Positions 1-17,498 of a stretch of DNA of 17,875 nucleotides are shown here, piece after piece. The notes under the pieces are model-generated. The model did not search any database, had not been told where the DNA came from, and saw only the letters and a program-made list of their open reading frames with translations. How positions within the stretch are numbered: position 1 is the stretch's first letter; every line of letters starts with the position of its first letter. The DNA is from Candidatus Hermodarchaeota archaeon. GTDB taxonomy: Archaea > Asgardarchaeota > Hermodarchaeia > Hermodarchaeales > Hermodarchaeaceae. The DNA lies in contig JAEOTO010000020.1 of the NCBI GenBank assembly GCA_016839805.1, positions 1 to 17,875 of the forward strand. Reading direction: 5' to 3'. Position numbers and translations under genes: made by a program.

Positions 1-141
1 AATCGGTTAAAAGCAAAAAAAACAATTTAACTATTTTATACGTAAAAGGAGTAAATTTTATATGCCGCAATAACCACTAAGAAAAAAGAGAGTAGAATCC
101 GTACCTCTCACAAGATAAAGACCAGAACCTACTGAGAGTGA

Positions 142-936
142 ATGGCAGTGCATGACACTTCCAAAAGCATGGATGAGTCATTAGACGCAAGGAGTATTAT
201 GACACTGGTAGTAAGTTACGTGTTCTTTAGTATCGGATTTTGGATAACGATCCAATTGGCCACTTTCAATTTTTATCACTCGGGATCACAACTAGGTTGG
301 TTTTTCCTTGGATGGAATCCTGCGGATCTAATATGGATGCACACTCTGAAATATGGACTGAGATTGTATGTGACCTTGGTTCCACTATTGACGATAATGG
401 GAATCAGTATCGGCGTGTATGCCTGGTTTTTAGAAGCCAAAGTCCGAGTATGGATGACCTTGCTGAAAACAATAGGATTGAGTCTCGCCTTTGCGCTTCC
501 CCTCATTGTACTATTGGTTTTCTTAATGCAGGGATTTTGGGATTTAATCAGTTTCCTCCCGTATTTACCATATTCTAATTATTACCTGATTATGATTGGA
601 TTCTTTTATACGATTTTATTTGTGTATTTGACAGCCATAGTGGTATTCAGTTCCCCAACGCCATTTTATATCGCCAATGAAATAATCCGAAACCCCATGT
701 TCTGGATGCTTTACTCTGGGTTCTTCATAATTTTAGTTGTGACCTTAGTTCCCTTTGTAGACTCCCTGATTACTGATTCGTGGCAGTACCTACCAGCCGA
801 AGTATATGCGTCTAGATGGATGGCTGGAATAACGATGGCATCGCTTCCTGTTGCTTTTGTACTCCCAGCGTTTCCGCTTCTTTTCAGCAGTTCAGATTAC
901 TATCCCAAGTTGGCCGATTCAAAACCACTTGCCTAG
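142..936 (+). CDS. Polytopic integral membrane protein, unknown function
   Basis: 264-aa ORF with about 6-7 hydrophobic segments; no recognisable family motif. Confidence 0.75.
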   Translation: MAVHDTSKSMDESLDARSIMTLVVSYVFFSIGFWITIQLATFNFYHSGSQLGWFFLGWNPADLIWMHTLKYGLRLYVTLVPLLTIMGISIGVYAWFLEAKVRVWMTLLKTIGLSLAFALPLIVLLVFLMQGFWDLISFLPYLPYSNYYLIMIGFFYTILFVYLTAIVVFSSPTPFYIANEIIRNPMFWMLYSGFFIILVVTLVPFVDSLITDSWQYLPAEVYASRWMAGITMASLPVAFVLPAFPLLFSSSDYYPKLADSKPLA

Positions 937-950
937 AAAGTGTGGATTAA

Positions 951-2198
951 TCAAGACGGATTCGATTTGAGCGGTTTGAATTTAAGAAAGACAACAACCA
1001 CCACCACAATGACACCGATAAGCCCACCAGCAATAAGGAAACCCAAGACCAATCCCAAGCCGGAACTACCGGCTGTTATCGTTGCCGAGGGGAGGATGTA
1101 GTTCTCAATGAGTGAAAATATGTCTAAATTGTTGCTAGCAGCTGTGATGACTACGATCATGTCGTGGTTGGGAATGACGAAGATATGCTGATTCTCATAG
1201 CCGTGCGCTGCATAAGCCTCCATATTGGGACGAATCCACCATTGATATCCATAACCAGTATTCGTATTCAAGATGACTTGTTGCGAAGAGGAGGCAGCAA
1301 CCCAAGAGGAGGGGAGAATCACGGTCCCATCCCAGGTTCCACGATGCAGATAAAGAAATCCGAATTTGGCCATATCCCTAGGTCGGAGCTGTAGACCTGA
1401 TCCACCGCATTGAATGCCGTTTGGTGAATTTTGCCAAGTATAATCGGTGATGCCTAATGGCGTAAATAACTGAGCTTCTGCAAAGGCAAGGGTTGTCATG
1501 TTAGTTGCTTGTGCAACAATTGCGGAGAGAAGGTGTGATCCTCCAGTATTATAGGCCCATTGTTCGCCCGGATTATATTCCATGGGTCGGTCGATAACGA
1601 ACTGCTCCCAATCGGGGCTAGTCGTCATGCGATACCAGTCGTTATTGGGATGTGTATAGGGGTAAGTCGATTCATCCCATGGGAGACCGGAGGTCATAGT
1701 GAGGAGGTCTTCTACAGTAACAGCTTCTTTGCGGGCATCAAGGTTATCGATTGTCATATGGGGGAAGAAGTCCACCATATAGTCGTGAATCGAAAGATAT
1801 CCTTGTGAAACGGCAATACCAATTAGCGCAGATGTGACACTTTTAGTGCAAGAAAAGATGTTTCGGGTTTGATTAATACGATTTGAGACATAGAAGTAGT
1901 TCTCATATACTAAATACCCGTGGCGAATTATTAGGACGGAACGGAGAGTCGCACTGGATTCCCATCCACTGATATAGTTCTCCATTTGAGGGTACCAGGT
2001 TGAATCCAGACCCTGAGACTCGGGGGTGGCGGTTAGCCAGCCTGAGGTAGGCCAATAATCTGGTTCACTGACCTGGGCATTAACTTGAACCGGTAAATAA
2101 TTACTGAAGATGGTAATAAGAAAGCATAGTAGAATTAACACACCGAACTTCCTAGAAGACATGTTAATCTCTTCCGATGAATAATTCCACAGAATCAT
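951..2198 (-). CDS. Serine hydrolase, beta-lactamase class C/NylB-like family; secreted and C-terminally membrane-anchored (likely start ATG at 2162, MSSRKF)
   Basis: SxxK motif FSCTKS, LLTMTSG, PGEQWAYNT (catalytic Tyr), RDMAKFG, YGYQWW, AHG; N-terminal signal peptide; C-terminal TM helix followed by a basic tail (KFKPLK). Confidence 0.92.
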   Translation of the reverse strand: MILWNYSSEEINMSSRKFGVLILLCFLITIFSNYLPVQVNAQVSEPDYWPTSGWLTATPESQGLDSTWYPQMENYISGWESSATLRSVLIIRHGYLVYENYFYVSNRINQTRNIFSCTKSVTSALIGIAVSQGYLSIHDYMVDFFPHMTIDNLDARKEAVTVEDLLTMTSGLPWDESTYPYTHPNNDWYRMTTSPDWEQFVIDRPMEYNPGEQWAYNTGGSHLLSAIVAQATNMTTLAFAEAQLFTPLGITDYTWQNSPNGIQCGGSGLQLRPRDMAKFGFLYLHRGTWDGTVILPSSWVAASSSQQVILNTNTGYGYQWWIRPNMEAYAAHGYENQHIFVIPNHDMIVVITAASNNLDIFSLIENYILPSATITAGSSGLGLVLGFLIAGGLIGVIVVVVVVFLKFKPLKSNPS

Positions 2199-2335
2199 CA
2201 GGTAAAAAGTTAATGAAAACAGCTAGTTAGTAAATAGGCTGAAAATTAAAAAGATAGACTTAATTCCGAATTGATTGGTTCGGAAACCGAAACATAGAGA
2301 AGATATGATAGAATCGGTTCGATTTTCGATCAAAC

Positions 2336-3133
2336 TTACTTTCGAGCAGGTTGACTATATTTATCCAAGACCTGCCAAGCTACGGGTTTTATTGCGGGTT
2401 CGGTGAGATTGATTGGCATAGGATAACGAATGCCGACTTTCGTACCAGCCTTATCGAGAGCGTCGATTGTGTCGTGGAGCATCTCCACAGGCAATGAAAA
2501 GATTATTTCATAGTCTTGAACCGCGGCATAAACGCGATCGCCTGCACCAGGAATGACGACATTGGGTTTCCGAGAAAGAATGGTTTGGAGAATACCATTA
2601 ACACAACTTGCCGCTAGACCCATTTGTTTTGTGAGGATTGGTGCACCGGATTTGTAGATATTGGCTTGGATGAGTCGCATGATCTGAGTTGAATTGCCAT
2701 GGATGAGGACCACATCAGGTTCAACTTTTGTCCAACCTAAAGGTGAGATAATAATGCCTTCATATTCCCCAGGTGTTAGCATAGGAAAGTGTTCTCGCAT
2801 TGTGGCTGTTGCTGCGTCGGTTTCATAATAGTCCATGGCTCGAAAGGCTTCAATAAATCCCTGGTCATCTTTAAGTTCGTGGAACCCGTAAGCGACAAGA
2901 TTAGGGGTGCAGTTCATGTCTTCGGCGGTTAAACCCATGGTCCAACCGATTCGTCGTGAAAAGGTGTACCCTTGACACATTGTGATTTTCATGTTAAACA
3001 CATTAGGGCGTCGTGTCTTCTCAGGGAATTGGTCTTTACTTTTTACAAGCCGTATTGCTAAGGGAAAGGTTTGGAGACGAAGTTTCTCAGAAAGTATTCG
3101 GCCGTATTGATGGTACTGTTCAAATTTTGACAA
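2336..3133 (-). CDS. DUF169 family protein (ArCR, Cys-containing)
   Basis: L..FPLAI, conserved CQ...RR.G, later C residues (NCTP, ASC), PDVVLI.G...QIMRL and PGAGDR...E.IFSLP pattern typical of DUF169. Confidence 0.8.
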   Translation of the reverse strand: MSKFEQYHQYGRILSEKLRLQTFPLAIRLVKSKDQFPEKTRRPNVFNMKITMCQGYTFSRRIGWTMGLTAEDMNCTPNLVAYGFHELKDDQGFIEAFRAMDYYETDAATATMREHFPMLTPGEYEGIIISPLGWTKVEPDVVLIHGNSTQIMRLIQANIYKSGAPILTKQMGLAASCVNGILQTILSRKPNVVIPGAGDRVYAAVQDYEIIFSLPVEMLHDTIDALDKAGTKVGIRYPMPINLTEPAIKPVAWQVLDKYSQPARK

Positions 3134-3148
3134 GGTATGTTCATTCCA

Positions 3149-4402
3149 TTATTTGTGGTTCGCAATTACTTTCTCAGTTTTTTGAGCATGATAGATTAAA
3201 TAGATAATCCCAAAGTTGATAGGAAGTATAAGGCTACTAGCAATCAGGGGAAGAGCTGGTTGGAATGCGTAACTAAGACCACCAATATAGGGCGTAAGTG
3301 GTGAAATTGCCCGAGATGTCAAGACGAATGTAGCGAATGCATTCGGTAATTGACTGGGATGGATCTGATGAGAGATGATGGCGTTTGTGAGGATGTAACC
3401 TCCATAAGATAAACCTCGAATAACATAGGCTAGGGGAAGAAAGATGGGAACAGGGATGATGAATAAGAGCGCGTAGTAACTTATGGATCCAAGGATTGGT
3501 ATAGTAAGCATCTTAGTATAACCCCATCGATCGCCAGCAACTCCGAGGAGAGGCCCGAGAATAGCGCCACTAGCACTAAGTATGGTAAAGAGGACACCGA
3601 TTGTGGATTCCTCCAAACCAAATTTATCGTAGAGATAGAGGGGAACGAAGAAATCTGCGAAGGTGTAGACTGAAAATACGACACCCATGAAAATAGTCGT
3701 AAAAATGAATACTCGATTTTTAATGAAATCCCACCGCCAACGCCTTTTAAGACCTTCAGATTTCTGCGGAACAGCTGTGAGCGGAAAAAGAAGAAGTGTA
3801 CTAATGATATAGCAGATTACTGAGACAAGAAAAAGATTCGAGTAACCGAATAAGGAGATTATTAGGCCACCAATTGTGGGAGCAGGAATACCAGCGAAGG
3901 CAGAAGAGCTCGCAATGAGAGAGTATCCAATCCCGCGTTGTTTTCGACTAGTAACATGGGATGTATAAGTTCGAAATGGCGCCGAAGCTAATAATGCTGT
4001 TCCTTCAAAGAAGGCTGCAAGTAGTGCCCACTGCCATCCAAGAGTTTGGGCGAGGATGTAAATAATCGGTGCGGGAATAACGATTATCCAACCCAAAATG
4101 AGGAGTGGTTTTACACCAAAACGTGTGGTAAGGACTCCTCCTAGTCCTGTCCAAAGGATCCCACTTGCCATCATAATCGAGGAAAAGAGTCCTGCCTGAA
4201 CGGGGGTCGCCCCAATGCTAGTGAGGAAGATGCTAAGGAAATTCGTATAAAGACCTAGACCAAAAAACCACATGAAATTTGAGACTAATAGAAAACCATA
4301 ACTCCGTCGAGGGTGGTCAAGTATATCTGAATCCGATTCGACGGAACCAATCTCTTTTCCATCCAATTCGTAACCTAGGTTATTTTGCTCCATACGAATC
4401 AA
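3149..4402 (-). CDS. Major facilitator superfamily transporter (likely start ATG at 4393)
   Basis: About 12 TM helices; motif A-like loops GGVLTTRFGVK and GVAGDRWGYTK; RG.GYS in the N-terminal half. Confidence 0.92.
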   Translation of the reverse strand: MIRMEQNNLGYELDGKEIGSVESDSDILDHPRRSYGFLLVSNFMWFFGLGLYTNFLSIFLTSIGATPVQAGLFSSIMMASGILWTGLGGVLTTRFGVKPLLILGWIIVIPAPIIYILAQTLGWQWALLAAFFEGTALLASAPFRTYTSHVTSRKQRGIGYSLIASSSAFAGIPAPTIGGLIISLFGYSNLFLVSVICYIISTLLLFPLTAVPQKSEGLKRRWRWDFIKNRVFIFTTIFMGVVFSVYTFADFFVPLYLYDKFGLEESTIGVLFTILSASGAILGPLLGVAGDRWGYTKMLTIPILGSISYYALLFIIPVPIFLPLAYVIRGLSYGGYILTNAIISHQIHPSQLPNAFATFVLTSRAISPLTPYIGGLSYAFQPALPLIASSLILPINFGIIYLIYHAQKTEKVIANHK

Positions 4403-4515
4403 ACTTAATCTTAGTAGCAGATCAGACCCTGGATGTACCCTAATTAATTTTGCAATAAGTGAATTTTGAAGTCATGATTGGCTTCCTTTGTTAAAAACAG
4501 AAACCGAAAAGAGCT

Positions 4516-5016
4516 TCAGTAATTCTGAATGCGATTGAGGAAAGTATGTGGACTTTCAATTATCTTAATTTTAATTGGATTAAAGACCACTTGAACCCAG
4601 GGTTTGTCATCACCTCGTCGGTCTCCTTCAATGATGAATTCTTTCACAAGGTTTCCGTAACTTGGAGCGACACTGTTCAAGTGAGGATCAGTATCCAATA
4701 ACCGAACTCCACTGGCAGCATCAGATAGAATAGTTGCGATAAGAAACCCAGGGTGTTCATTCTCTAGGGAATAAGCGGTTTGGAGTCCGGATTGACCTTG
4801 GAAGAAGGTAAAATCATTATGTGTTTCAATTGCATCCATAAAGATTTCATAACTGAGTTGTAGGTTTCCAACCTTCCGGAGAATGACCAACACTGTTACG
4901 AAGGGACCATGCCCTGCGAATTCACGATCGCGTCCATCCACGTAGGGTGGATAGAATGGTTTTGAAGGTGAGATTTTCACATCGATTTCTTTTGAGAACG
5001 GCTGTTCCAATTTCAT
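4516..5016 (-). CDS. Hypothetical beta-rich protein (DREFxGHGP motif)
   Basis: 166-aa ORF with ATG start in an otherwise unoccupied interval; motifs DREFAGHGP, MDAIET.D.T, DTD, LVKEF...GD..GDD. Confidence 0.7.
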   Translation of the reverse strand: MKLEQPFSKEIDVKISPSKPFYPPYVDGRDREFAGHGPFVTVLVILRKVGNLQLSYEIFMDAIETHNDFTFFQGQSGLQTAYSLENEHPGFLIATILSDAASGVRLLDTDPHLNSVAPSYGNLVKEFIIEGDRRGDDKPWVQVVFNPIKIKIIESPHTFLNRIQNY

Positions 5017-5207
5017 TTTAATACCTATTATTAAGAGTATGTTCCACGGTTTTCAACTTACGGGAACCTTTAGGGTGAAAAAACTGCGATAGCCGGGAAG
5101 AACCAACGTTTTTAGGAACTTTTGGGTTCGGATTTCCTCAGAATTAGTATCCAATTCAAAAAACATAAACTCTAATATTAATGAAGAATTGATGAGGCTG
5201 ACAAGTC

Positions 5208-5372
5208 ATGGATGAGGAAAGTGAACTAAGTTGGAATGATGAAGAAATATCTTCACCTCTCAACCGTTGGCTCATTAGATGTTGTGCAGTCCTTATTATC
5301 GTCATCTTTATTACAGCATTAGTATTAGGATACGCTTCCTGGTTCTTCCCCTATCCATCCCCTTTCCCTTGA
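5208..5372 (+). CDS. Small single-pass membrane protein (54 aa), not in the ORF track
   Basis: ATG 5208 to TGA 5372: MDEESELSWNDEEISSPLNRWLIRCCAVLIIVIFITALVLGYASWFFPYPSPFP; acidic N-terminus, one TM helix, Pro-rich tail; AT-rich TATA-like TAATATTA at 5173-5180. Confidence 0.65.
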   Translation: MDEESELSWNDEEISSPLNRWLIRCCAVLIIVIFITALVLGYASWFFPYPSPFP

Positions 5373-5396
5373 ATTTTAAAATGGATAATAGTTGAC

Positions 5397-5403
5397 TTTA
5401 TTA
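5397..5403 (+). promoter_or_regulatory. Putative archaeal TATA box for ncRNA element 1
   Basis: TTTATTA located 21-27 nt upstream of the GGGAAG start of the structured element. Confidence 0.35.
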
Positions 5404-5423
5404 GATTTTTCCCGTTTAAGAAA

Positions 5424-5678
5424 GGGAAGTGGAACGGCTCCCCGGACATCCGAATGGACCAAGAGGTTGGAGGGAAATTGGAGCATTCGGTCCAGGTTTT
5501 CCAAGATTTCCAATGCTTGGGGGCCTACTGCTGGTGGACAACGGATTTCGGAAATTTTGAAAGTCAGACATCCTTTGGGGAGCCGTCTTCGGTGTCAGCT
5601 TGTTGACCTTGGAGGAATAATCTTGAACATGCTGATACAGTGAACCTCTTGGTTGTCATCCGCGTCCTTCCTGGTACG
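5424..5678 (+). ncRNA. Unclassified structured RNA, element 1 (about 255 nt, possibly extending to about 5790)
   Basis: Closing helix GGGAAG 5424-5429 with CTTCCT 5667-5672; 13-bp helix 5434-5446 with 5574-5586; hairpins 5473-5511 and 5592-5638; 11-bp perfect complement 5458-5468 with 5643-5653 crossing the first helix; G-U pairs favour the + strand; no credible CDS. Confidence 0.6.
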
Positions 5679-5834
5679 TTTCAGCAAGTAGAAAGTCTGT
5701 AATTCAGAGGTATATAGTCGTGGATACCGGCAAGTTCGAAAAGTAGTCTTTCAAGCTAAAAGAACAACAGGAAACCGAACTTACTGGTTCATTATTCATC
5801 CGATGAAAACTCGTAGAAGAAGAAGCCTATCTTG

Positions 5835-6812
5835 TTATGCTCCTGCTTGCTCTAAAATCTCGTCCAGTAGAATCTCCCTTAGACCTTTGAAGTGTCGCAT
5901 AGGATAGAGTACAAGAATTTCCACTTGATCAACCATCGGGCCACGTTTGATTCCATGGGCAATTCGTTCAAACAAATTCATATTATCAACGACAAAGGTA
6001 CTGAAAAGAATCGGTTCCGTGGCTGAAGTATAGGAATACCAATGCTCACGGGGGAACTGTTTTTCAAGCCATTCGACTAATTTTTTTGGTTCTACTTGAT
6101 TTTCGTCATAGGTGATTCGTGTTACGTATGATATGTTTCCACCGGAATTCAAGTTCCATATCGTACGAAAATGTATAGGTTCACTATAAGCACGATTTTC
6201 TGGCGGAATATCGTTCCGTATTATAAAGGCCCTAGTTGTACTCTTGTTTCCACCTAGCGTGTCGAGAACTCGTCGGATAGTTCGTGCAGTTAATCCAGTT
6301 CGTTTTGCTAGTTCCACTATAGACATACGAGCGTCTATTCTTAATTCCCGTAAGACTTTCAGTTGGAGCGGTTTGAACTCAATTTTTCCACCTTTTTCAG
6401 TTAATAGAGTGTGGATTTCAACCTGAGCAACTCCATCTAATCCGCGAAGGAACCTACTTAGATCAGCCAGTCCTTGGGCTCCCACATATTCTCCGAATAG
6501 CATTACGTCCCCACTAGATAGAAAAGCAGCTCGATGAACCATTGGATTAGTGCCAATCGTAGTAATGAGAACTTCATCGTCGTTGGATCCATCAGTTGTA
6601 ACAAAAGCCACAAACATTTCGGCATCGATCATCCCAAGACTTAACCAAATTCCAAACCGTTTGAGAATACCACATTTCTGAAGCTTGGTGACTCGCTTCT
6701 TAATTGCGTTGGCACTGAGGTTAAATTGTCTAGACAATGCCTCGTACGAGATGCGGCAATTTGCATCTAATTCGTAGAAAATCCCTTTGTCAATTTGGTC
6801 CACCGCAGACAC
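5835..6812 (-). CDS. Tandem (two-module) Lrp/AsnC-family winged-helix transcriptional regulator (alternative start GTG at 6803, MDQID)
   Basis: Two HTH modules, DQIDKGIFYELDANCRISYEALSRQFNLSANAIKKRVTKL and LQLKVLRELRIDARMSIVELAKRTGLTARTIRRVL, each followed by a RAM/ferredoxin-like domain. Confidence 0.88.
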   Translation of the reverse strand: MSAVDQIDKGIFYELDANCRISYEALSRQFNLSANAIKKRVTKLQKCGILKRFGIWLSLGMIDAEMFVAFVTTDGSNDDEVLITTIGTNPMVHRAAFLSSGDVMLFGEYVGAQGLADLSRFLRGLDGVAQVEIHTLLTEKGGKIEFKPLQLKVLRELRIDARMSIVELAKRTGLTARTIRRVLDTLGGNKSTTRAFIIRNDIPPENRAYSEPIHFRTIWNLNSGGNISYVTRITYDENQVEPKKLVEWLEKQFPREHWYSYTSATEPILFSTFVVDNMNLFERIAHGIKRGPMVDQVEILVLYPMRHFKGLREILLDEILEQAGA

Positions 6813-6814
6813 CG

Positions 6815-6958
6815 CGTACCAGGAAAGTAGTATCCTACCGAGTAGGGGAAGCTAGCTAACTGATAATTCAAGGCTATCAGTCTTAAGCTCTACTCGACAG
6901 CATTAAGCGAAAGAAAGTTCTTCGATTTAAGCTAAACCGTAGCTGCATTCCTTCCCAG
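6815..6958 (-). ncRNA. Unclassified structured RNA or leader, element 2 (about 144 nt, four-way junction)
   Basis: On the - strand: closing helix 6958-6951 with 6826-6819, arm 6946-6942 with 6901-6897, arm 6896-6890 with 6845-6839 (inner helix 6881-6875 with 6865-6859), hairpin 6838-6827. The arms abut without linkers, and G-U pairs favour the - strand. Confidence 0.55.
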
Positions 6959-6969
6959 ATTTCTCAGTA

Positions 6970-7413
6970 TCAGGGAGGTAATAACAGTTCAAATATTTTT
7001 CGAGATGGAGGTTTTGAAAATGAATGAGACGCTGTCCAAAGACAATCGTGCTTTATAACATCCAATGTGAATCCAGATTGATGTAGTCGCAAGAGATATT
7101 GCATTAATTCAATCAATCTAGATAATGTGTGCCCTAAATTATCATCCTTAGATGAATCCTGTGAATTATCCAAGGTTTCATCACGAACCTCTTTGCGGTG
7201 GGGTAACCAGACTTCCACTTCGATGGATACCATCTTGGGATCCTTTGTTGTCCGAAGTAAGAGTATTCGAAACGAACTGGTTTGCATGAGAGGAGTAACT
7301 GATTCCCCCAATTCAGATAATAATGAAGAGTTAACAGGGGAGGTAGTGATTTGCTGGTATTTTTGCATCAGTTCTTCAAGCTTCATCATTAATTCTTTTT
7401 TATCCCCTCCCAA
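6970..7413 (-). CDS. Hypothetical soluble protein (likely start ATG at 7389)
   Basis: ORF with natural composition filling the interval; no family recognised. Confidence 0.7.
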   Translation of the reverse strand: MGGDKKELMMKLEELMQKYQQITTSPVNSSLLSELGESVTPLMQTSSFRILLLRTTKDPKMVSIEVEVWLPHRKEVRDETLDNSQDSSKDDNLGHTLSRLIELMQYLLRLHQSGFTLDVIKHDCLWTASHSFSKPPSRKIFELLLPP

Positions 7414-7562
7414 GGTGAGTTATTTATTCATGGCAACCGCAGGGTTCGGAAATAATACAAAGGTCCCTGTTCTAGGGAGAAATTGTAAATCGTCTGGTTC
7501 GTTTTAATTCATTCTAAAGTAATTGGATATTTTCACCCAAATGATAAATCTCTTATGCAAGC

Positions 7563-9011
7563 ATGGGGAAACTAATGACATGTTCATGTATGGATGGAAA
7601 TAGATTGGTTAGAAAAAGATTCCATCCAAGACCCAGCTTCACCATTTTCATTTTGGTATCGCTCATGCTAGCCCCAATATGGATCCAAATCTCATATGAA
7701 TTACCGAAAACATCGAACAATAACCATCCATCATCAACAGAATATCATAGAGGATCTAGCCTAGAACAGCCAACCAATCTGGAACACATGCAGATAGAAA
7801 AAATGTGGAACCGAACCTACAGCCGTTCGATGTACGATATCGGGTATGGGATAATCGAATGTCACGATGGTGGATTTGCGATAATTGGGGCTACCCAGCA
7901 AACAAGCATGGAAATGAGTCACCGATACAATTTATGGCTAATCCGAACAGATGCCTCAGGAAACGAGCGCTGGAACACTAGTTTTGGCCAAATAGGTTAC
8001 GATGGAGGGTATGATCTCGTTGAATGCCCTGACGGTGGATTCGCTCTTCTGGGATATTCAATGAACAATCAAAGTGATGCATCTGATATCTTTGTGGTGA
8101 GAACGGATGCCCAGGGGGGCCTCCTTTGGCATAGAATTCATCAAGTCACTGGTTCAGATTCAGGCTATTCGATTATACGGGTCCGTGCAGGTGGCTTTGC
8201 AGTGCTATGTAATCTCATGTTTCGTGAGACATATTTACTTCGAATTGGTGAGGATGGATCTTGGTTGTGGAACCAAACCTTTCCAGTGCCATCTCTTCGT
8301 ACGAATAAGGGACTTGTTGAATGTCCGGATGGAGGATTTGCATTTATTGCTAGTAATGATCCCCTCCGATGGTCCAGTGTAGGACTGTTTCGAACTGATG
8401 CGAATGGACAAATGTTATGGAATCGCTCATTTGGTGATGTTTCAGACACATATTCTGGACGAGGGTTGGTGCTATGCTCTGATGGAGGATTCGCCTTCAC
8501 CGGAGGTATATGGACAACAAATACAAATAATTGGGATATATGGTTGGTTCGTTCCGATTCTCAAGGTACCCTCTTATGGGATCGAAGTTTCGGAAGTTTG
8601 GAGTATGAAATTGCATATTCAATAACTCAAATCCAGGGAGGAGGATTCGCGTGTACAGGAATAGTGGAAACCGCTGAGGGATTTCATAATATCAGATTAG
8701 TAATTACGGATCCATTAGGAGAAACACTATTGGATCATAGAATTGTATGCTATAGTAATTATCGAGCATATTCTATTGTCGAATGTAAAGATGGAGGACT
8801 GGCATTTACCGGGGGATTTGATGAGGGAGATACTGGAATGAACTTGATATTATTCCGAATACCTGGAAACCCAAATTCGATTCTTACTAATCGAGTTGTG
8901 TGGGTTATTCTCGTTTTATTGCTTCCTCTGATGACTAGTGTCCTAGTGGTTTGGATTGCACTTCATTTTCTTCGATCAAAGGGCAAACAAAAGAAGGCCA
9001 AATCGCCGTAG
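7563..9011 (+). CDS. Cell-surface beta-propeller-like repeat protein with N-terminal signal/TM and C-terminal TM anchor
   Basis: About 7 repeats of about 50 aa, consensus D.GY.I.EC.DGGFA..G......WL.RTD..G..LWN.TFG; C-terminal TM followed by RSKGKQKKAK. True start may be downstream of 7563. Confidence 0.85.
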   Translation: MGKLMTCSCMDGNRLVRKRFHPRPSFTIFILVSLMLAPIWIQISYELPKTSNNNHPSSTEYHRGSSLEQPTNLEHMQIEKMWNRTYSRSMYDIGYGIIECHDGGFAIIGATQQTSMEMSHRYNLWLIRTDASGNERWNTSFGQIGYDGGYDLVECPDGGFALLGYSMNNQSDASDIFVVRTDAQGGLLWHRIHQVTGSDSGYSIIRVRAGGFAVLCNLMFRETYLLRIGEDGSWLWNQTFPVPSLRTNKGLVECPDGGFAFIASNDPLRWSSVGLFRTDANGQMLWNRSFGDVSDTYSGRGLVLCSDGGFAFTGGIWTTNTNNWDIWLVRSDSQGTLLWDRSFGSLEYEIAYSITQIQGGGFACTGIVETAEGFHNIRLVITDPLGETLLDHRIVCYSNYRAYSIVECKDGGLAFTGGFDEGDTGMNLILFRIPGNPNSILTNRVVWVILVLLLPLMTSVLVVWIALHFLRSKGKQKKAKSP

Positions 9012-9114
9012 AGTATTCCTGATGAGTTACCGGTATCCTAAGCTTTTTTTGGGATTTCACAATGAAACACCAATGATGGTTGTTTCCGACTCATGAACGA
9101 GGAGACTCACTGAA

Positions 9115-9468
9115 TTGATTGTCAAACATATTCGCGACAACCTGAGTAACCGTGATGGTACCTTACGTCTCCTAGGAATCTGGGATGATACTCTAAACCC
9201 TGGTACGTTAGTTGATCCTCATTCTCACCCCAATATTGAAGAAGTCTACTATATCCTTGAAGGTAAAGGGGAAGTCTTGGTAGGTCAAGAAACCCAACTT
9301 GTTAGCCCTGGACACATCATCTACATCCCCCCGAATACCATACACACAATTAGACCACGAGAGAATAAACCCCTTAGATGGATTACGATAGCAATTGCGA
9401 TTGATTCCCAATCCGAGCCTTCAAAAATAAAATCTAAACCACGTACACAAGAACCCTATATCGTTTGA
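9115..9468 (+). CDS. Cupin domain protein
   Basis: Metal-binding motifs PHSHPNIEEVYYILEGKG and GHIIYIPPNTIHTI; SD-like GAGGAG at 9099-9104 before the TTG start. Confidence 0.9.
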   Translation: MIVKHIRDNLSNRDGTLRLLGIWDDTLNPGTLVDPHSHPNIEEVYYILEGKGEVLVGQETQLVSPGHIIYIPPNTIHTIRPRENKPLRWITIAIAIDSQSEPSKIKSKPRTQEPYIV

Positions 9469-9561
9469 ACACGAAAATTGTAGAGTCCAGAGTTTTGTAG
9501 ATTGTAAATTTAATAGAGGGCACTGAGACTTATACTTGAAAATGTAAATGGACGGATCTTA

Positions 9562-10047
9562 ATGCCAAAGGATGATCAAGAAAAATCATGTTTGTCAGAT
9601 TTAGGCGGATTAATCCAATTATTTGGCGGGATCCTTGTTTTAGGGGCTCAAGTCACCCTGTTTTTTTTCCTTCAAGGCTTCTTAGCCTGGATCACCACGC
9701 AGCCTCCAGATCTGCAGATTCTTTTTGGCCAGCTAGCATTGATGCTTTTAATCTCAATCGCCATCATGGTAATCTGTGGAATTGTAACTATTCTAGCGGG
9801 TTTTATATCGTTTTACCGTAGTGGGACTCTTGGTGGATTTCTAGCCCTGTTTTTGGGAATTATTGTATTAGCCGTTGGTATCTGGTTAACTTTCGGTCTG
9901 AGTCTTTATCCCGGTCCCCTTCAATATGCTAGCGGGGTGCTGGCAATAGTAGGTGGCATTGTAAGTATCATTCCAGCATGGAAGCCACCTCAAGAACCTG
10001 AAAGTCGAAGACAACGCGATCAACGAGAACGAGAAAAACGGAAATAA
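9562..10047 (+). CDS. Four-TM Gly-rich membrane protein with basic C-terminal tail
   Basis: 161-aa ORF, four hydrophobic helices, RRQRDQREREKRK tail. Confidence 0.8.
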   Translation: MPKDDQEKSCLSDLGGLIQLFGGILVLGAQVTLFFFLQGFLAWITTQPPDLQILFGQLALMLLISIAIMVICGIVTILAGFISFYRSGTLGGFLALFLGIIVLAVGIWLTFGLSLYPGPLQYASGVLAIVGGIVSIIPAWKPPQEPESRRQRDQREREKRK

Positions 10048-10147
10048 ATGATTTGAATTTGGATGAGGAACCGGAGGTCGAGGGCGGGTTATTAGCTCTT
10101 TGCACTGCATGAAATATGGTGATACAAGGAAGGAATGTGTTGCTGAA

Positions 10148-11554
10148 CTAGCTAAGAATTCGCCTAAAGGAATAGCGTGAAAATACGAAAATAATGGGTA
10201 GAAAGACCAATGCTCCAAATATGATAGTTGCACCCTTAGCTATCAGAAATAGTTGATAACGAATTAGCATCTCAGATACTGTTGAGACATAGAGATTGCT
10301 GTTCAAATACACCGTAGACCCATCTAAGGTGTAATATACTAACTGAGATGCTGATTGGAATTTTTGTAGATGAACAAGATAGCTGTATTGGGAATCAATC
10401 ATCACAAGATCGACATACGAATTCTGTGTGGGGATATCAGTGAGTAGGATTGGGGAGTCCCAACTCGTGCCAATTCGCTTCATAATATAGAAACGAATTA
10501 GTAAGTTCCAGGAAGAAGCCACAAAGTTAGGAGGGGGAATAAAATGTTCTTGCCCTAAGAGTTGAAGGTTATTATCTGAATCCACTTCCAAATCGAAGAG
10601 TCGTCCGGGAATTTGATCAAAATGAGTAGTTGCACTCCACGTTTGGTTATAGTAGGATCGGTGAAAAATATCACCTGAATATTCACACCATACAACATGA
10701 ATTGTTTCATCCGGACTCATAACCACCAACCATTCATCAAGACCCCAGGTGCCATTATTAACCAGTACGTCTTGAGACCAGGATCCATTGCGATAGGAAC
10801 GAAATGCTAGCCCAAAGTTATCTTGACTGTAATTATCCCAGAAAAAGTAAAGGTGGTCATCGAAACCTGCCAAGAGCTGTGATCGTTGTAGATAATGAGC
10901 ACCCTCAGCTGTCTCATCTAACAAGGTTACTGGAGGTAACATCGATCCAACTTGCCAACACTGGAGTTGCCACTGAGAATCAGATAGGTGGTTGAGATAA
11001 AAGGCATGAAGAGTGCCATTCAACCCATATTGGAGTTGAAATTTGGATACCACATGGGTATTGGGAAGTATTTGGATGGTTGACCAGGCTGTGTTATTGT
11101 ACACTCGAAGATAGCCTTGTCCATCTCTTGGATCAAAATACCAATTAGGGAGGGGTTGAATCCACCCAATAGCGATATTTCCTGTTGAATCACATGTCAG
11201 GGTGGTTCGAATATCTTCAGAATAAGACCAGATTTGATAAGGTAACCAATTGGTTCTAAATGGTTCTGATATGAGTATCGGATCAATATCGTGAGTAGGG
11301 GCCTGGTATTTCATGACACAGCGTACGGAACCATTGGGGAGAGAGATTACTTCTCCCCAGCATACTTGTAACTGGTTAGCCCCATCTAATTCCGCTTGAG
11401 GGGATATTGGACCAATTGCCGGTTGATAATACAACCCATCTATTGCGGGGGCAGTCATAACGGATACAAAAAGGAAGACCCCAATTATCATCACTTGGAA
11501 AAGAATAATCAGAGTAGGCTTAAGCGATTGTGAAGAATTAGGGCTCCTTGTCAA
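10148..11554 (-). CDS. Cell-surface beta-propeller/BNR-like protein with N- and C-terminal TM segments (start reassigned from 11791 to TTG 11554)
   Basis: Repeats of D..G..H..W...Y......WS; TTG 11554 is in frame and overlaps the upstream TGA (TTGA coupling), and is followed by a signal-like hydrophobic stretch. Confidence 0.75.
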   Translation of the reverse strand: MTRSPNSSQSLKPTLIILFQVMIIGVFLFVSVMTAPAIDGLYYQPAIGPISPQAELDGANQLQVCWGEVISLPNGSVRCVMKYQAPTHDIDPILISEPFRTNWLPYQIWSYSEDIRTTLTCDSTGNIAIGWIQPLPNWYFDPRDGQGYLRVYNNTAWSTIQILPNTHVVSKFQLQYGLNGTLHAFYLNHLSDSQWQLQCWQVGSMLPPVTLLDETAEGAHYLQRSQLLAGFDDHLYFFWDNYSQDNFGLAFRSYRNGSWSQDVLVNNGTWGLDEWLVVMSPDETIHVVWCEYSGDIFHRSYYNQTWSATTHFDQIPGRLFDLEVDSDNNLQLLGQEHFIPPPNFVASSWNLLIRFYIMKRIGTSWDSPILLTDIPTQNSYVDLVMIDSQYSYLVHLQKFQSASQLVYYTLDGSTVYLNSNLYVSTVSEMLIRYQLFLIAKGATIIFGALVFLPIIFVFSRYSFRRILS

Positions 11555-12204
11555 GGTAGTACACCTTCCCAAAGTAATTGTATCCGATAATGTGGTGGGG
11601 GTTGATTTCGCCAGTCTCGTTGTTGAAACGTGGTAAATAGAAACCATAGGAAGATACCGATCATGAAAAGGGTGATAATGGAAGTGAGATAGAGGAATAA
11701 CGCACTTATGAACACCGATAAGCTGGTTAGCATACCTAACAAGAAAGTGCAGGAGTTGGCTATTACCGTAGTGGCTCCAATGAATTGCCAATGATTGAGG
11801 GGACCAAGCTCGTTTGTTGTTCTACCTGGTATTTGGAGAAACCATTTGGTTCCACTTCGCCAGAACCAGAATTCGAGGAGAATAGGAGCTAAGAAAAATC
11901 CGATGAACACACCCCAGGGATTGTAAGCAAGGTTAATTCCTAGGTGAAGAAGAACAGTGTATGAAGGTGATGTTATGGGGCTGATGAAAAGGCCAAAGAG
12001 TAAGATGGCAATTCCAAAGGATAAGGGTGTGCTGATGACCTGAACAAAACTCATGTAACCAAGAATATGGACAGCGCGGATATTCCCTAGTTGGCGTTTG
12101 AGTATCTGGTGCCAGACGAGGCCCTCAATGAAGGCACTCATGGCCCAGCTAGCTAACAGCGATCCTAATAACAGGTAAATTTCGTATGAATATAGCACGC
12201 TCAT
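11551..12204 (-). CDS. Polytopic membrane protein, unknown function
   Basis: 217-aa ORF with about 5 TM helices; stop overlaps the start of the downstream surface protein. Confidence 0.75.
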   Translation of the reverse strand: MSVLYSYEIYLLLGSLLASWAMSAFIEGLVWHQILKRQLGNIRAVHILGYMSFVQVISTPLSFGIAILLFGLFISPITSPSYTVLLHLGINLAYNPWGVFIGFFLAPILLEFWFWRSGTKWFLQIPGRTTNELGPLNHWQFIGATTVIANSCTFLLGMLTSLSVFISALFLYLTSIITLFMIGIFLWFLFTTFQQRDWRNQPPPHYRIQLLWEGVLP

Positions 12205-12300
12205 AACTATGATCCCTCACCGTTGCACCAAATGCTAGAAGGAAGAGCAGGCTTTTTAGATTGTGCTGTGGGCAAATAAATATTGAATTCATTGGAAGTG

Positions 12301-12753
12301 ATGTTCGTGAGTTTGGATGAGTATCGGGCAAAACGCGATTTTAGCAAAACTTCTGAACCCCCTCCAGAAGTCAAGGTTAGTGCTGGTAACTTATATGTAA
12401 TTCAACGGCATGAAGCCAGAAATCTGCACTGGGACCTTAGACTAGAACAGAATGGAGTTTTAGTGAGTTGGGCAGTACCTAAGGAACCACCCACAAAAAA
12501 AGGGGTCCGTCGACTAGCCATTCAAACAGAAGATCATCCATTAGAGTATGCTAGTTTTTCGGGGACAATTCCTGAGGGCGAATATGGTGCTGGGAAAGTG
12601 GAGATTTGGGATAGGGGAAATTTTGAAACGGAGAAATGGGAAGAGAAGGAGATCATCGTGATTCTACATGGGAAGCGCTTAGAGGGACAATATTGTCTTA
12701 TTCGGTTTCAAAAAGTCAAGGACGGTTGGCTGTTCTTCCGCTGTGGACCGTAA
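12301..12753 (+). CDS. Stand-alone DNA 3'-phosphoesterase (LigD PE domain)
   Basis: LDEYRAKRDFSKTSEP, VIQRHEARNLHWDLRLE, SWAVPK, RLAIQTEDHPLEY, GTIPEGEYGAGKVEIWDRG are diagnostic LigD_N/PE motifs; no ligase or polymerase domain is fused. Confidence 0.93.
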   Translation: MFVSLDEYRAKRDFSKTSEPPPEVKVSAGNLYVIQRHEARNLHWDLRLEQNGVLVSWAVPKEPPTKKGVRRLAIQTEDHPLEYASFSGTIPEGEYGAGKVEIWDRGNFETEKWEEKEIIVILHGKRLEGQYCLIRFQKVKDGWLFFRCGP

Positions 12754-12861
12754 GAGGCCTTTTTGTCGAGGCAATCTTGTCACATAGACAATCTTTTAGG
12801 TTTAAACAGAGAATTATACATATTCGTTAAAGTCACGTTTTGACTGGAGAGAAGCCATCAG

Positions 12862-13722
12862 GTGAAGCTGGTCACCTACGTAACAGATGCTGGTCCCCGC
12901 GTTGGTTGTATTGATGATGGAGAGGTTGTACCAACACCCGGCATCCCGGATATAATTAACTTATTCTACGATCCCTCATTGGAACACTCCATTGAAGCGG
13001 CCTTGAAAGGACGGATTGATGCACAACCCCTTAACGAAGTGGAACTTCTTGCACCGATCCCCAGGCCCACCAAAATCATCGCTATTGGACTCAACTATCG
13101 TGATCATGCTGAGGAAACAGGGCAAAAACTACCTAAAGCCCCTATCTTATTTTCAAAACCACCAACTGCTGTTATTGGTCATGAGTCGAATATCATTATC
13201 CCTGACGGTGCTTCACAGGTTGACTACGAAGTAGAGCTCGGCGTTGTTATGGGTAAGGGTGGACGGAATATTCCTGTCGAACTTGCTTTAGACTATGTAG
13301 GTGGTTATACCGTATTCAACGATATATCTGCACGGGACTATCAATTTCGTGATGGGCAGTGGTTCCGAGGTAAAAGCTTTGATACTTTCGCTCCAATGGG
13401 TCCATGTCTCACCCTCCCGGATCAGATTCCTAATCCCCAAGAATTGAAGATGCAACTTCGACTTAATGGAAAAACGCGTCAAAAAAGTTCAACGGCAAAC
13501 ATGGTTTTTTCCGTTGCCGAGTTGATAGCTGATATTTCCCAGGTCATGACGTTTGAACCAGGAGATGTTATAGCTACTGGCACGCCCTCTGGCGTTGGGT
13601 TTAAAGTTAAACCGAAGCCCATCTTTCTTCAAGATGGCGATTTAGTTGAAGCAGAAATTGAGGGAATTGGTATACTCCGGAACCCTGTTATAAAAAAATC
13701 ACACATTCCCCTAGATTCTTAA
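12862..13722 (+). CDS. Fumarylacetoacetate hydrolase family protein
   Basis: KIIAIGLNYRDH, DYEVELGVV, NDISARD, GKSFDTFAPMGP, GDVIATGTPSGVG; SD-like GGAG upstream of the GTG start. Confidence 0.95.
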   Translation: MKLVTYVTDAGPRVGCIDDGEVVPTPGIPDIINLFYDPSLEHSIEAALKGRIDAQPLNEVELLAPIPRPTKIIAIGLNYRDHAEETGQKLPKAPILFSKPPTAVIGHESNIIIPDGASQVDYEVELGVVMGKGGRNIPVELALDYVGGYTVFNDISARDYQFRDGQWFRGKSFDTFAPMGPCLTLPDQIPNPQELKMQLRLNGKTRQKSSTANMVFSVAELIADISQVMTFEPGDVIATGTPSGVGFKVKPKPIFLQDGDLVEAEIEGIGILRNPVIKKSHIPLDS

Positions 13723-13756
13723 TCCATGATTAAGAACCCGTATACGGGAAATTCTA

Positions 13757-14725
13757 ATGCCGTTAACTGGTGTGGATTTGTTGCTCACTTATCAATGCAC
13801 AAGTCGATGCCACCATTGTCTTTACCGAGCGGGTTCGCATCACCAAGATTTAATGTCAGAACAACAATTTCATGCTATCCTCGAATCCCTCGAAGGATTC
13901 CCTCTTCGTTGGATCATGCTGTTTGGTGGAGAACCGCTTCTTTTTCAAGATCAACTATACCAATGGATTAACACGATTTCTAAGCGATTTCCATCTGTGA
14001 ATAGAGGCATTATCACTAACGGTTTCTGGGCTAAAACGGCTGAAGACCGTAGACAGATCCTAAGGAAATTAAGTGCAGCTGGACTAACCCACCTATCACT
14101 AAGTTATGACAGCTTCCATGCCCGCTTCGTTAATCCCGAATATATCCAAAGGATTTTGAATGAGTTAAAAACTGATGATTTCCAAAAAGTGACAATTGAT
14201 TCCTACTTCCTCTTTGGAGAAAATGCACAAAACGATTACAATTACAAAACCAATAGACTGCTTGAGCAATTAAATATCCCATCTTTTGTGGTACTTCAAA
14301 AGTTTAACGTGTTAACAGTAGGACGAATGGTTGATCACCTTCAAGGCAATTCGACCCTATACACTTTCGATGATTCACCTTGTCAAGTACCCTATTGGTT
14401 AGGATCCAGCCTTGCTCAATTATCAACCATCGAAATTGACAGTGCCGGATATGTTACTCTTTGTCCTGGTATTACGATTGGTAACATGCACCAAATGCCA
14501 CTTCATGAAATTATCTCATCCTATAATCCAATTCAACATCCCATAATCCATGCCCTTACTAGCACAGGTATTGGGGGACTTATTCAACTAGCGCAAGAAC
14601 ACAATGTAAAAATATCGACCTTAAAGGTCAGTAGTGCCTGTCATGCCTGTTACATACTCCGTCGTGCTTTACTTGACACATTTCCAAACTACCTCGCACC
14701 CCGACATCTATATGGATCTGATTAG
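13757..14725 (+). CDS. Radical SAM protein with C-terminal Cys-containing (SPASM/twitch-like) extension
   Basis: CxxxCxxC (CTSRCHHC), GGEPLL, ITNGFWA, LSYDSFH; C-terminal PC..., LCPG..IGN, CHAC. Confidence 0.92.
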   Translation: MPLTGVDLLLTYQCTSRCHHCLYRAGSHHQDLMSEQQFHAILESLEGFPLRWIMLFGGEPLLFQDQLYQWINTISKRFPSVNRGIITNGFWAKTAEDRRQILRKLSAAGLTHLSLSYDSFHARFVNPEYIQRILNELKTDDFQKVTIDSYFLFGENAQNDYNYKTNRLLEQLNIPSFVVLQKFNVLTVGRMVDHLQGNSTLYTFDDSPCQVPYWLGSSLAQLSTIEIDSAGYVTLCPGITIGNMHQMPLHEIISSYNPIQHPIIHALTSTGIGGLIQLAQEHNVKISTLKVSSACHACYILRRALLDTFPNYLAPRHLYGSD

Positions 14726-16689
14726 GATTCTGGATTATTTTCCTCATTAGAATAGTCGAGTAACTGTTTTTGCTGTTCAGTGTGCGAATCGCGTTTTGAG
14801 AGTTTAAATTCCGATTCATCGGTAGTGAAAGGTTCATGGGATTTGTCCGAGAGGAATATGTCAAGCCCTCGTGACTGTTTCCGAGGAAACTCGATTTGCA
14901 TAGGACCCAAAACCTGTTCAAAGGCCATGTCAAGTTTCCTGATATAATCAGGCACATCGATTTCATTTCGTGTAGCCATACGAGTGGGCTTTACACTAAA
15001 AGTTCGGGCACCATACCGGAAGGGTTTCACCTTTACAAAGCCGATTTCATCTCGTTTCTTTACTTTGATACCTTTATCTTTCAGTTGCTCAAGGGCTTGA
15101 TAGGGTTGTGGAAGTCCCGCTCCTTTTCGGCGTTCCTTATCTGCCCTCCAAAGTTTCACTCGATATTCAAGATCTTCAACGGTGAATTCACGCCGACGAA
15201 GCTTGGATATCTGTTGTTTAAGAATCTCAATAATCTTAGGACCAACTTGGGCTAGTTTTTTAGGGTTATCAATACCTTTGAGAGGTTTGACAGCTTCTAG
15301 AAAGATTTGGCGGAATCGTGGAGGCGTGCTGGATTTTCCTAAAGTAATTCCTTTAATGTCGGGTGTTCCATCGGGAAGCATTCCGAAATAGGCTTTCTTT
15401 GCAGAACTAAAGACACAGAGTGGATACACCACATCTACAGCAAGAATGAGATCGAGCTCATCTTTTACTTTTGCAATGAGCCAGTTGATCTGTTTAAGAG
15501 TTGGTTGGTCCAAAAAAAGCGAATCGGTATCACCATAGATAGGACGCATACCCTTCTCAACAGCGTAATCCCAGCTGTTTCGTAATGACCATCGCCCATA
15601 GGCCATCATGGACTCTGCAAGGGGAGGAGATGCAAGACCATGGATTCGAATAGTTACGCCACCACTACTCACCAATAAAAATTTCAGAAGATCTGAGATA
15701 ATTTGTGCTTTCTTGCGTTCCTCAGTAGGTATATCCTTCTGGCGGCTTAAGGGTTTAAACCAATGAATACGTAAATCTTTAAGTGCACCAATCAAGGCAC
15801 TGAAGATACCACGACGATGTGTACAAACATAGTGGGGCTCATCAGGTACCTGATTAGATTGACATTCAGGGTGACCACAATTCATTGTCTCATAAGCGAG
15901 ATTATATCGATCAATCAAGCTCGGATATAGTGACTCGAAATCCACAACTGTCATGTTATAATAGACACCGGGTGTTGGTGCTATTGTCAAGGCACCTTCC
16001 ACGCGATGAGGTGTGTGCCCCAGTGTAAGTTCTTCTGGATTAGGGATTAAAATATCAAGGTGCCGATAACTGGTGTGTAGCATCGACCGAATCCAATCAG
16101 AAACGCTCCGGCTTTTCAAGGCGCGTTGGAAAGGAATATTAGCAATTCGAGCAAGCATAACACCCCAGAGTAGTCTGGAATCATCATATTTTTCTTCAAT
16201 ACGCAATAGGTCCCGAGGTATTTCTGGTACAGGTTGAATCGCGTAGCTGAAGAATTCCTTCAATAGATCAAATTTCAGGGGATCTTCATCAGCGGTTTGC
16301 GCAAATTTTGTGTTAAATGCATCGAGTTGATTCCTTGGTAAATGTAAGTTAAGTTGATGTCCTTTCAGTGTTGGCTTGTGAGGACACCAGAATCGGAGCA
16401 GCTGATCATAAATATAGCTTGATGCTGGTTTAAGGTCACGTTCCCATTCTCGCTCAGTTTCCACCATACTATCCATTGGAATAGAGGCTACTGTGAGAAA
16501 CTCGTCGTTCATCAAGTCTTTTCGTTTAACTTGCGTTCCTAAGCTGGCGGGTAAGGCATAGAAATGCGGGGTAAAATCATCATGAACTGTGATCAGCTGT
16601 TGTTCGGGTGTCTGTAAATATGTAAGCTCAACGCGCCCAAGAACAGCATCATAGGCTGCATCCAATAACCAGAGGTGACTATCAGACAT
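14722..16689 (-). CDS. polB: Family B DNA polymerase, PolB1-like, lacking the 3'-5' exonuclease domain and with divergent motif B
   Basis: Motif A DFESLYPS (about 15919-15942), motif C YGDTDSLF (about 15514-15537), KKAYFG, PolB1-type YETMNCGHPEC...HYVC and LKDLR; no ExoI DIE motif; 655 aa. Confidence 0.9.
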   Translation of the reverse strand: MSDSHLWLLDAAYDAVLGRVELTYLQTPEQQLITVHDDFTPHFYALPASLGTQVKRKDLMNDEFLTVASIPMDSMVETEREWERDLKPASSYIYDQLLRFWCPHKPTLKGHQLNLHLPRNQLDAFNTKFAQTADEDPLKFDLLKEFFSYAIQPVPEIPRDLLRIEEKYDDSRLLWGVMLARIANIPFQRALKSRSVSDWIRSMLHTSYRHLDILIPNPEELTLGHTPHRVEGALTIAPTPGVYYNMTVVDFESLYPSLIDRYNLAYETMNCGHPECQSNQVPDEPHYVCTHRRGIFSALIGALKDLRIHWFKPLSRQKDIPTEERKKAQIISDLLKFLLVSSGGVTIRIHGLASPPLAESMMAYGRWSLRNSWDYAVEKGMRPIYGDTDSLFLDQPTLKQINWLIAKVKDELDLILAVDVVYPLCVFSSAKKAYFGMLPDGTPDIKGITLGKSSTPPRFRQIFLEAVKPLKGIDNPKKLAQVGPKIIEILKQQISKLRRREFTVEDLEYRVKLWRADKERRKGAGLPQPYQALEQLKDKGIKVKKRDEIGFVKVKPFRYGARTFSVKPTRMATRNEIDVPDYIRKLDMAFEQVLGPMQIEFPRKQSRGLDIFLSDKSHEPFTTDESEFKLSKRDSHTEQQKQLLDYSNEENNPES

Positions 16690-16816
16690 ATGTAGGTATC
16701 TCCAAGGCTACGCCAAGAATGAGGAATTCCCCTTGCTTTAAGGTTGTGCTCGATGTCACATGATTGAATGCCATAATCAGTAGAGCATTATAGAGGTTTG
16801 GAATAACCTGACAATC

Positions 16817-17440: not shown

Positions 17441-17498
17441 GAGAACGGACTTCACAACTTGAATTCAATCGAGATTGGATTTCTGAATAATCTGAGAC

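Follow-up and report, generated by a model that had tools for sequence, protein, structure and literature searches.

A candidate small RNA family of Hermodarchaeia associated with genes for basic micro-proteins, with one copy retained after loss of its upstream gene

The DNA examined here, referred to as the window, is a stretch of 17,875 nucleotides from a Candidatus Hermodarchaeota archaeon (GenBank assembly GCA_016839805.1, contig JAEOTO010000020.1, positions 1 to 17,875; genome G000 below). The region of interest surrounds a minus-strand gene (5835-6812) whose 325-aa product is a regulator carrying two HTH domains of the AsnC/Lrp type (PF13404 and PF13412, each matched in two stretches). 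This gene is syntenic in the genus. Upstream of it lies a conserved 147-aa ORF on the same strand (6970-7413) that belongs to no Pfam family and is also syntenic across the genus. On the other side, a long intergenic region is followed by a 166-aa ORF without a Pfam family (4516-5016); relatives have a methyltransferase gene at that place. Further along, the window encodes a stand-alone LigD 3'-phosphoesterase (PF13298, 12283-12753) and a family B DNA polymerase that is short, at 655 aa (PF00136, 14722-16689).

A preliminary description of this DNA had proposed two homologous structured RNAs pointing inward at the regulator: element 1 on the plus strand (5424-5678) and element 2 on the minus strand (6956-6815), with a common closing helix beginning in GGGAAG, an identical 11-nt 3' end and a TTATTA box upstream. 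As landmarks these are accurately placed. GGGAAG is present at 5424(+) and 6956(-), the 11-mer at 5668-5678(+) and 6825-6815(-) with no other copy in the 2.3-Mb genome, and TTATTA 21-28 nt 5' of both elements, and the ORF between them does carry two AsnC-type HTH stretches. As signs of homology they failed. BLAST revealed no similarity between the two elements, and the 11-mer match is at chance level: inverted matches of this length number 63 in the window, and in 4.6% of trials an 11-mer was common to the two intergenic regions after shuffling. Conservation was lacking as well. The 11-mer of element 2 was found in 1 of 11 relatives, the sister species only, and its GGGAAG and TTATTA in 0 of 11; the GGGAAG and TTATTA of element 1 were found in 0 of 10. 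The second TTATTA, read as a promoter box, consists of two Leu codons at the end of the 147-aa ORF. Folded as drawn, the elements were only weakly better than shuffled sequences (z -1.35, 18/200 and z -1.74, 8/200).

With regard to known RNAs, the preliminary description was right in recognizing none. A covariance-model search with Rfam 15 gave no match to either element at E<=10 except for 17 nt in element 2 (E 5.4), which we regard as chance, and ARAGORN found neither a tmRNA nor a tRNA in the window. The possibility that the region supplied a missing RNase P or SRP RNA was rejected, as the genes for both (RF00373 and the archaeal RF01857) are encoded elsewhere, on contig C22. The same contig carries a tRNA-Pyl(CUA) gene (C22:264781-264858), from which we infer that the organism probably uses pyrrolysine.

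The nature of element 1 became clear from comparison with relatives. It was matched in 10 of the 14 genomes of the same genus, and in nine of them it is split into two pieces about 1.2 kb apart, separated by a minus-strand gene for a 406-aa beta-lactamase-family serine hydrolase. This gene has been deleted in G000 and in the sister species G013. What remains is a 67-nt relic of its start and end (5593-5659, minus strand), in which the SD-ATG and stop contexts are those of the intact gene in relatives, together with its Shine-Dalgarno sequence AGGAAGG (5666-5678, minus strand), whose reverse complement overlaps the 11-mer. In the relatives, the RNA described below starts 8 nt past the hydrolase stop codon. 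Element 1 is consequently not a single unit and merges three things: a minus-strand RNA (5586-5434) and, between 5593 and 5678, the relic and the Shine-Dalgarno sequence of the lost gene. The closing helix proposed for it would join that Shine-Dalgarno sequence to a pyrimidine tail. The 255-nt span approximates the probable extent of a transcript (about 5686 to 5420), but on the opposite strand.

The structured RNA core comprises 153 nt (5434-5586, minus strand) and consists of two stacked 10-bp closing helices, P1 and P2, a three-way junction and the arms P3 and P4. In nine further genomes the core is 81-89% identical, compared with 65-68% for the Lrp region. The minus-strand fold was better than those of shuffled sequences (z -3.34, 0/200), and 99.2% of cells were paired (33 pairs, 11 genomes). 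Within the subfamily of the window RNA alone covariation is weak, with one pair changed on both sides (84/500 shuffles). A 34-nt loop in the P3 arm (5514-5547) is near-invariant and includes the motifs CCGUUG.C and GUAGG; its invariant columns were defined over 22 copies from two paralogous subfamilies. The P4 arm (5455-5494) has a CU-rich, variable loop with an anti-SD-like CCCUCC and ends in CCUCUUGG, which, like CCGUUG.C and GUAGG, is invariant over the two subfamilies; (U)CCGUUG occurs in subfamilies C and D too. The core is followed by a pyrimidine/U-rich tail (5418-5433), the probable 3' end or terminator, and a U-rich tract follows P1 in every paralogue.

Both strands fold well, and folding energy leaves the strand undecided. 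We assign the RNA to the minus strand because single-sided changes gave G-U in 10 pair columns and A-C in 1 (the structure having been derived on the minus strand), and because the paralogues are all in the sense of their upstream gene and end in a U-rich tract. Since frame-breaking indels occur within the core across relatives, it is not coding. An 83-aa plus-strand ORF over element 1 was considered as a hidden peptide and rejected in view of frame-breaking indels and non-synonymous drift, as was a 31-codon frame in the relic. An 11-bp helix between 5458-5468 and 5643-5653 is perfect only in G000 and G013 and has several mismatches in the intact genes, and was therefore dropped as a family feature. 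In both deletion genomes the invariant AACCUCUUGGU of the RNA has a perfect complement of 11 nt in the relic, which is missing from the intact genes; this is possibly a pairing gained after the deletion and possibly chance.

The deletion made it possible to compare how each part of the locus has changed in the two genomes that lack the gene. Between G000 and G013, the RNA core is identical at 151 of 153 positions (98.7%), the SD/leader at 96.8% and the promoter/operator region at 95.5%. The relic is identical at 56 of 67 positions (83.6%), with mostly non-synonymous changes, flanking intergenic DNA at 81.6% and the third codon positions of the Lrp gene at 75%. The difference between RNA and relic is significant (Fisher p 5e-5). 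Because the RNA and its promoter stayed near-identical after the deletion and the relic did not, the RNA is selected independently of its former host gene. The comparison shows that purifying selection on RNA and promoter persisted once the coding sequence was gone. The genes downstream vary among the genomes.

The promoter in question is a BRE/TATA-like sequence, CACGA.TATATA (5711-5722, minus strand), kept in 10/10 genomes. Archaeal TATA spacing places the predicted start near 5686, which would give a transcript of about 270 nt. Next to it are two operator-like palindromes (5724-5790): GAAC-N6-GTTC at 5777-5790 and a near copy at 5724-5737 that abuts the promoter. In GAAC-N6-GTTC the half-sites are fixed and the spacer is variable in 10/10 genomes. 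The adjacent double-HTH regulator would be the obvious candidate to bind these sites, and the link to the regulator that the preliminary description had raised as a possibility is probably right for the RNA in element 1, by way of conserved palindromes at the promoter predicted to drive it. Alternatively, the promoter could have been kept for the 166-aa ORF, which lies on the same strand 400 nt downstream, or transcription of the Lrp gene could read through, with the RNA forming the 3' end of that mRNA.

Element 2 is the TATA promoter of the Lrp gene together with a conserved 5'-leader hairpin. Within the promoter region (6901-6947, minus strand), the block TGCAG.TA.G is conserved and a TATA box occupies 6930-6925, which predicts a start at 6901; the first 55 nt of element 2 would accordingly lie upstream of the start site, which does not fit a discrete RNA gene. 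Its real part is the hairpin in the leader of the Lrp mRNA (6839-6896, minus strand), whose upper stem is variable. Over 12 genomes its 7-bp basal helix, CGAGUAG/CUACUCG, shows 96.4% pairing and two compensatory pairs (7/500 shuffles). The hairpin is a cis element, real though modest, and bears no relation to element 1. Two covariance models of the RNA family, run on element 2 with filters off, gave background scores. A two-member family flanking the regulator is thus hardly credible: an 11-mer present only twice in the genome and similar GGGAAG starts speak for it, but the match is unconserved and without a model score, and the ends of element 1 lie far apart in relatives. The claim of a new ncRNA family survives for element 1, which contains one without an Rfam match, and not for element 2.

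Other contigs carry the true paralogues of element 1. A first covariance model (R1) detected a paralogue in G000 (C27:34490-34639) and in ten other genomes. The C27 copy lies about 185 nt 3' of a conserved ORF for a 45-aa basic protein, with a second short ORF in between. A model built from paralogues only, without the subfamily of the window RNA (R2), recognized the window RNA with an E value of 1.9e-12, and found four copies in this genome and matches in 18 of the 19 genomes of the class. The other three copies in G000 follow genes for ~45-aa basic proteins. Genomes have 2-5 copies, which are divergent and occupy fixed orthologous sites. An apparent tandem copy (L280:5053-5209) proved to be a scaffold artefact at an NN join between the sequences of two strains. 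Across three subfamilies the closing helix covaries at 5 of 11 pairs (0/500 shuffles, a control inflated by relatedness). No Rfam match was found for the paralogous RNAs. In G000 there is also a GC-rich structured island (C33:54254-54380) that gave no R2 match and is probably a different RNA.

In terms of distribution, R2 gave only two marginal matches (E 0.006-0.008) in 144 genomes searched outside the class. When 596 Gb of GTDB genomes were scanned with a 31-nt degenerate pattern of the conserved loop, it matched 9 times, each time in an archaeal MAG; two of these are titled Hermodarchaeota/Hermod and the rest Promethearchaeota, Thorarchaeota or uncultured archaeon. A 14-nt pattern had 119 matches in viral contigs, which were taken as chance since the pattern is too short. 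By these searches, the RNA family is found only in Hermodarchaeia. Literature searches yielded no regulatory RNA described for Hermodarchaeia and, with thin coverage of subscription journals, no description of this RNA.

All 36 non-hydrolase matches of R2 at E<1e-3 are located about 50-225 nt 3' of a small-protein gene on the same strand (11 of the 36 were not used in building R2; one reverse-strand shadow was omitted and coordinates were compared by hand), while the 11 hydrolase-type copies are without a small-protein ORF. There is one RNA subfamily per protein subfamily, and the interiors of the subfamilies differ strongly. G000 has four genes for these class-restricted basic proteins of about 45 aa, which carry the motif ER...G..NP...SR (C27:34168-34644, C23:7976-8820 and C13:10218-10500). 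Closed-stem RNAs follow three of the four; the C13 gene is followed by a 16-bp terminal hairpin with CGUUG.

A profile of the small proteins found 1-6 copies in 18 of the 19 class genomes, while 381 genomes from the rest of the phylum yielded no credible match. Against 1.8 billion representatives it matched 16 short proteins, in addition to two repeat-rich false matches. There was no Pfam match at E<=1, NCBIfam gave chance matches only, and searches with the ESM Atlas, PDB sequences and Foldseek were likewise without a match. The structure model consists of two helices and is of low confidence (pLDDT 62). The basic composition of the protein and the position of its gene suggest that it may bind RNA. 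No conserved pairing helix was found between the small ORFs and their 3' RNAs.

Several further features of these cassettes were noted. At B-type loci a second ORF of about 27 codons is kept (C27:34332-34415 in G000), preceded by an SD-like GGTGGT, and a AUGAUGUCAC motif precedes the RNA at the C27 B-type locus. A promoter-like motif, CCCATCGA.T.ATA, stands ahead of C- and D-type small ORFs (L183, L216-L223); its presence in both tandem cassettes suggests co-regulation. Genes for a PDYWP-type serine hydrolase and a DUF362 protein repeatedly adjoin small-protein/RNA cassettes (L169, L170, L177, L178, L257), and such hydrolase neighbours may explain how one RNA came to lie behind a hydrolase gene.

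The nearest known arrangement is that of CcaF1 (DUF1127) and CcsR in Alphaproteobacteria, where a small-protein gene is followed by a structured 'cuckoo' sRNA in its 3' UTR (PMC8034643). Both systems have a same-strand sRNA 3' of a small-protein gene, a CU-rich anti-SD-like loop and several paralogous loci per genome. However, the small proteins found here are without DUF1127, and the CCUCCUCCC motif of the cuckoo (CIN1) RNAs is absent, the loop having a variable CCCUCCAACCUC instead. CcsR comprises tandem two-hairpin RNAs, whereas the Hermodarchaeia RNA is one closed three-way junction of 120-155 nt. The window copy, moreover, is archaeal, follows a hydrolase gene and survives its loss; going by position, the 36 paralogous copies would lie in the UTR of a small-protein gene, as CIN1 RNAs do, and the window copy would not. 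As the DUF1127 domain and the cuckoo hairpins are both absent, the family is not a member of CcsR/cuckoo. Bacterial 3'-UTR-derived sRNAs such as that of glnA (PMC9731577) are likewise encoded at the 3' end of a metabolic gene, whose promoter and terminator they share; they are short seed-plus-terminator molecules, in contrast to the large, closed and highly conserved fold in Hermodarchaeia. The U-rich tract straight after the element resembles archaeal terminators, U-tracts recognized by aCPSF1 (PMC8716108), but a terminator corresponds to the tail only and leaves the conserved 153-nt fold unexplained. The RNA is a new family in a known kind of layout.

Some other RNAs are similar in outline. 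Y, vault and 6S RNAs are about 100-180 nt long, and in each the 5' end pairs with the 3' end to form a long helix; those of the Y and vault type further possess a U tail and a loop rich in pyrimidines, and function as RNPs. The Hermodarchaeia RNA is alike in size and paired ends, and shares the pyrimidine-rich loop and U tail with Y and vault RNAs, but its fold is branched rather than rod-like and has no Rfam match. Inspection of the alignments revealed no Ro-binding helix with a bulged C, and a Ro60/TROVE gene was not found in the genome, which is 87% complete.

Taking these results together, our tentative preference, to which we assign a probability of about 0.45 on the basis of sequence comparison, is that the window RNA is a trans-acting, Lrp-controlled sRNA that binds a protein. 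It is one of four paralogues in a Hermodarchaeia-specific family, whose small RNAs would be encoded at transcript 3' ends. Transcription would begin from the TATA promoter at 5716 and end at the U-rich tail, and the neighbouring Lrp-type protein would control it by way of the GAAC-N6-GTTC sites. The 20-bp closing helix would make the RNA stable, and its action in trans would depend on protein binding through the invariant loop motifs. As these motifs are invariant behind unrelated upstream genes, a shared partner is favoured over a gene-specific role, and the likeliest partner would be the family's own ~45-aa basic protein. The window copy, having no small ORF of its own, may then serve as an extra partner or a decoy under a different signal. 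A broader version, in which the ~45-aa proteins and their cognate closed-stem RNAs form an Asgard-specific RNP that acts on a core machine such as the ribosome, and in which the RNA freed by the deletion has become a gene of its own under a transcription factor and titrates or retargets the partners, seems doubtful to us.

Other modes of action have to be weighed against protein binding in trans. The RNA might instead act by base pairing, its CU-rich P4 loop covering GGAGG-type SD sequences as in CcsR, and protein would then only mature or stabilize it. CCCUCC is indeed unpaired, within a loop, in most copies of subfamilies A and B and is complementary to the UUGGAGGGA ribosome-binding site of D-type small ORFs; the presence of SmAP/Lsm genes and the CcsR precedent (PMC8034643) also speak for base pairing. 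CCCUCC has nevertheless been lost in 4 of 11 A copies while adjacent motifs are invariant, subfamily C has a purine-rich tract instead and no conserved target was found, so that we consider base pairing unlikely, although it ranks ahead of the remaining alternatives. Just below it we place a cis-acting 3' element that stabilizes the upstream mRNA, sets its 3' end or aids its translation, and that in G000 now serves a read-through Lrp mRNA or attenuates the downstream gene. Such a role agrees with the constant position directly 3' of a same-strand gene and ahead of a U-tract, and with the C13-type small ORFs, which have just a terminal hairpin, with CGUUG in a related stem. It accounts poorly for an RNA and an internal promoter/operator that were kept nearly unchanged after the host gene was lost, for 153 nt with invariant loops, far in excess of the needs of a terminator, for downstream genes that differ among genomes and for the lack of any conserved pairing between small ORFs and 3' RNAs.

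A further reading takes the RNA as an aptamer or self-processing ribozyme from an undescribed class, with the loops as tertiary core. In its favour, unpaired residues stay invariant in two arms of the three-way junction, pairing across the arms is possible, and the layout of subfamily C resembles a pseudoknot. We consider this reading improbable, as no Rfam ribozyme or riboswitch matched at E<=10, the subfamily interiors differ strongly and a 3' position is unusual for a prokaryotic riboswitch. More remote still is an element acting at the level of DNA, such as a MITE or an inverted repeat bound by a protein. Inverted repeats of 10-17 bp at the termini, in several copies per genome, would suit it, but the changes tolerate G-U on one strand and orthologous positions are fixed across the genus. 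The many near-identical copies at variable sites expected of a MITE were not seen, and the few copies per genome are divergent. A box C/D or H/ACA guide was rejected, as the alignments have no conserved boxes and 23S matches in relatives are of 7-8 nt, at chance level. In a variable 23S region of three relatives (L179:~1590, L180:2228-2260, L181), (A)CAACGGA and CCU(A/G)CU are complementary to two invariant motifs of the RNA; guiding through UCCGUUG(U) and AGUAGG would involve matches of 6-8 nt that run in parallel order and in part fall inside a stem of the rRNA, and amounts to no more than a weak lead.

Asgard archaea are the closest prokaryotic relatives of eukaryotes. The family described here, though confined to one class, is a strongly conserved, multi-copy RNA family without an Rfam match and is tied to a family of unannotated micro-proteins. 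Its parts are small: the RNA has 155 nt and the peptide 45 aa, with one regulator and two operator sites besides, so that binding and structure would be testable in vitro without culture of the organism. The deletion of the hydrolase gene is a natural experiment, which shows that the RNA is selected for its own sake and in which a 3'-UTR element is found turning into an apparent stand-alone RNA gene.
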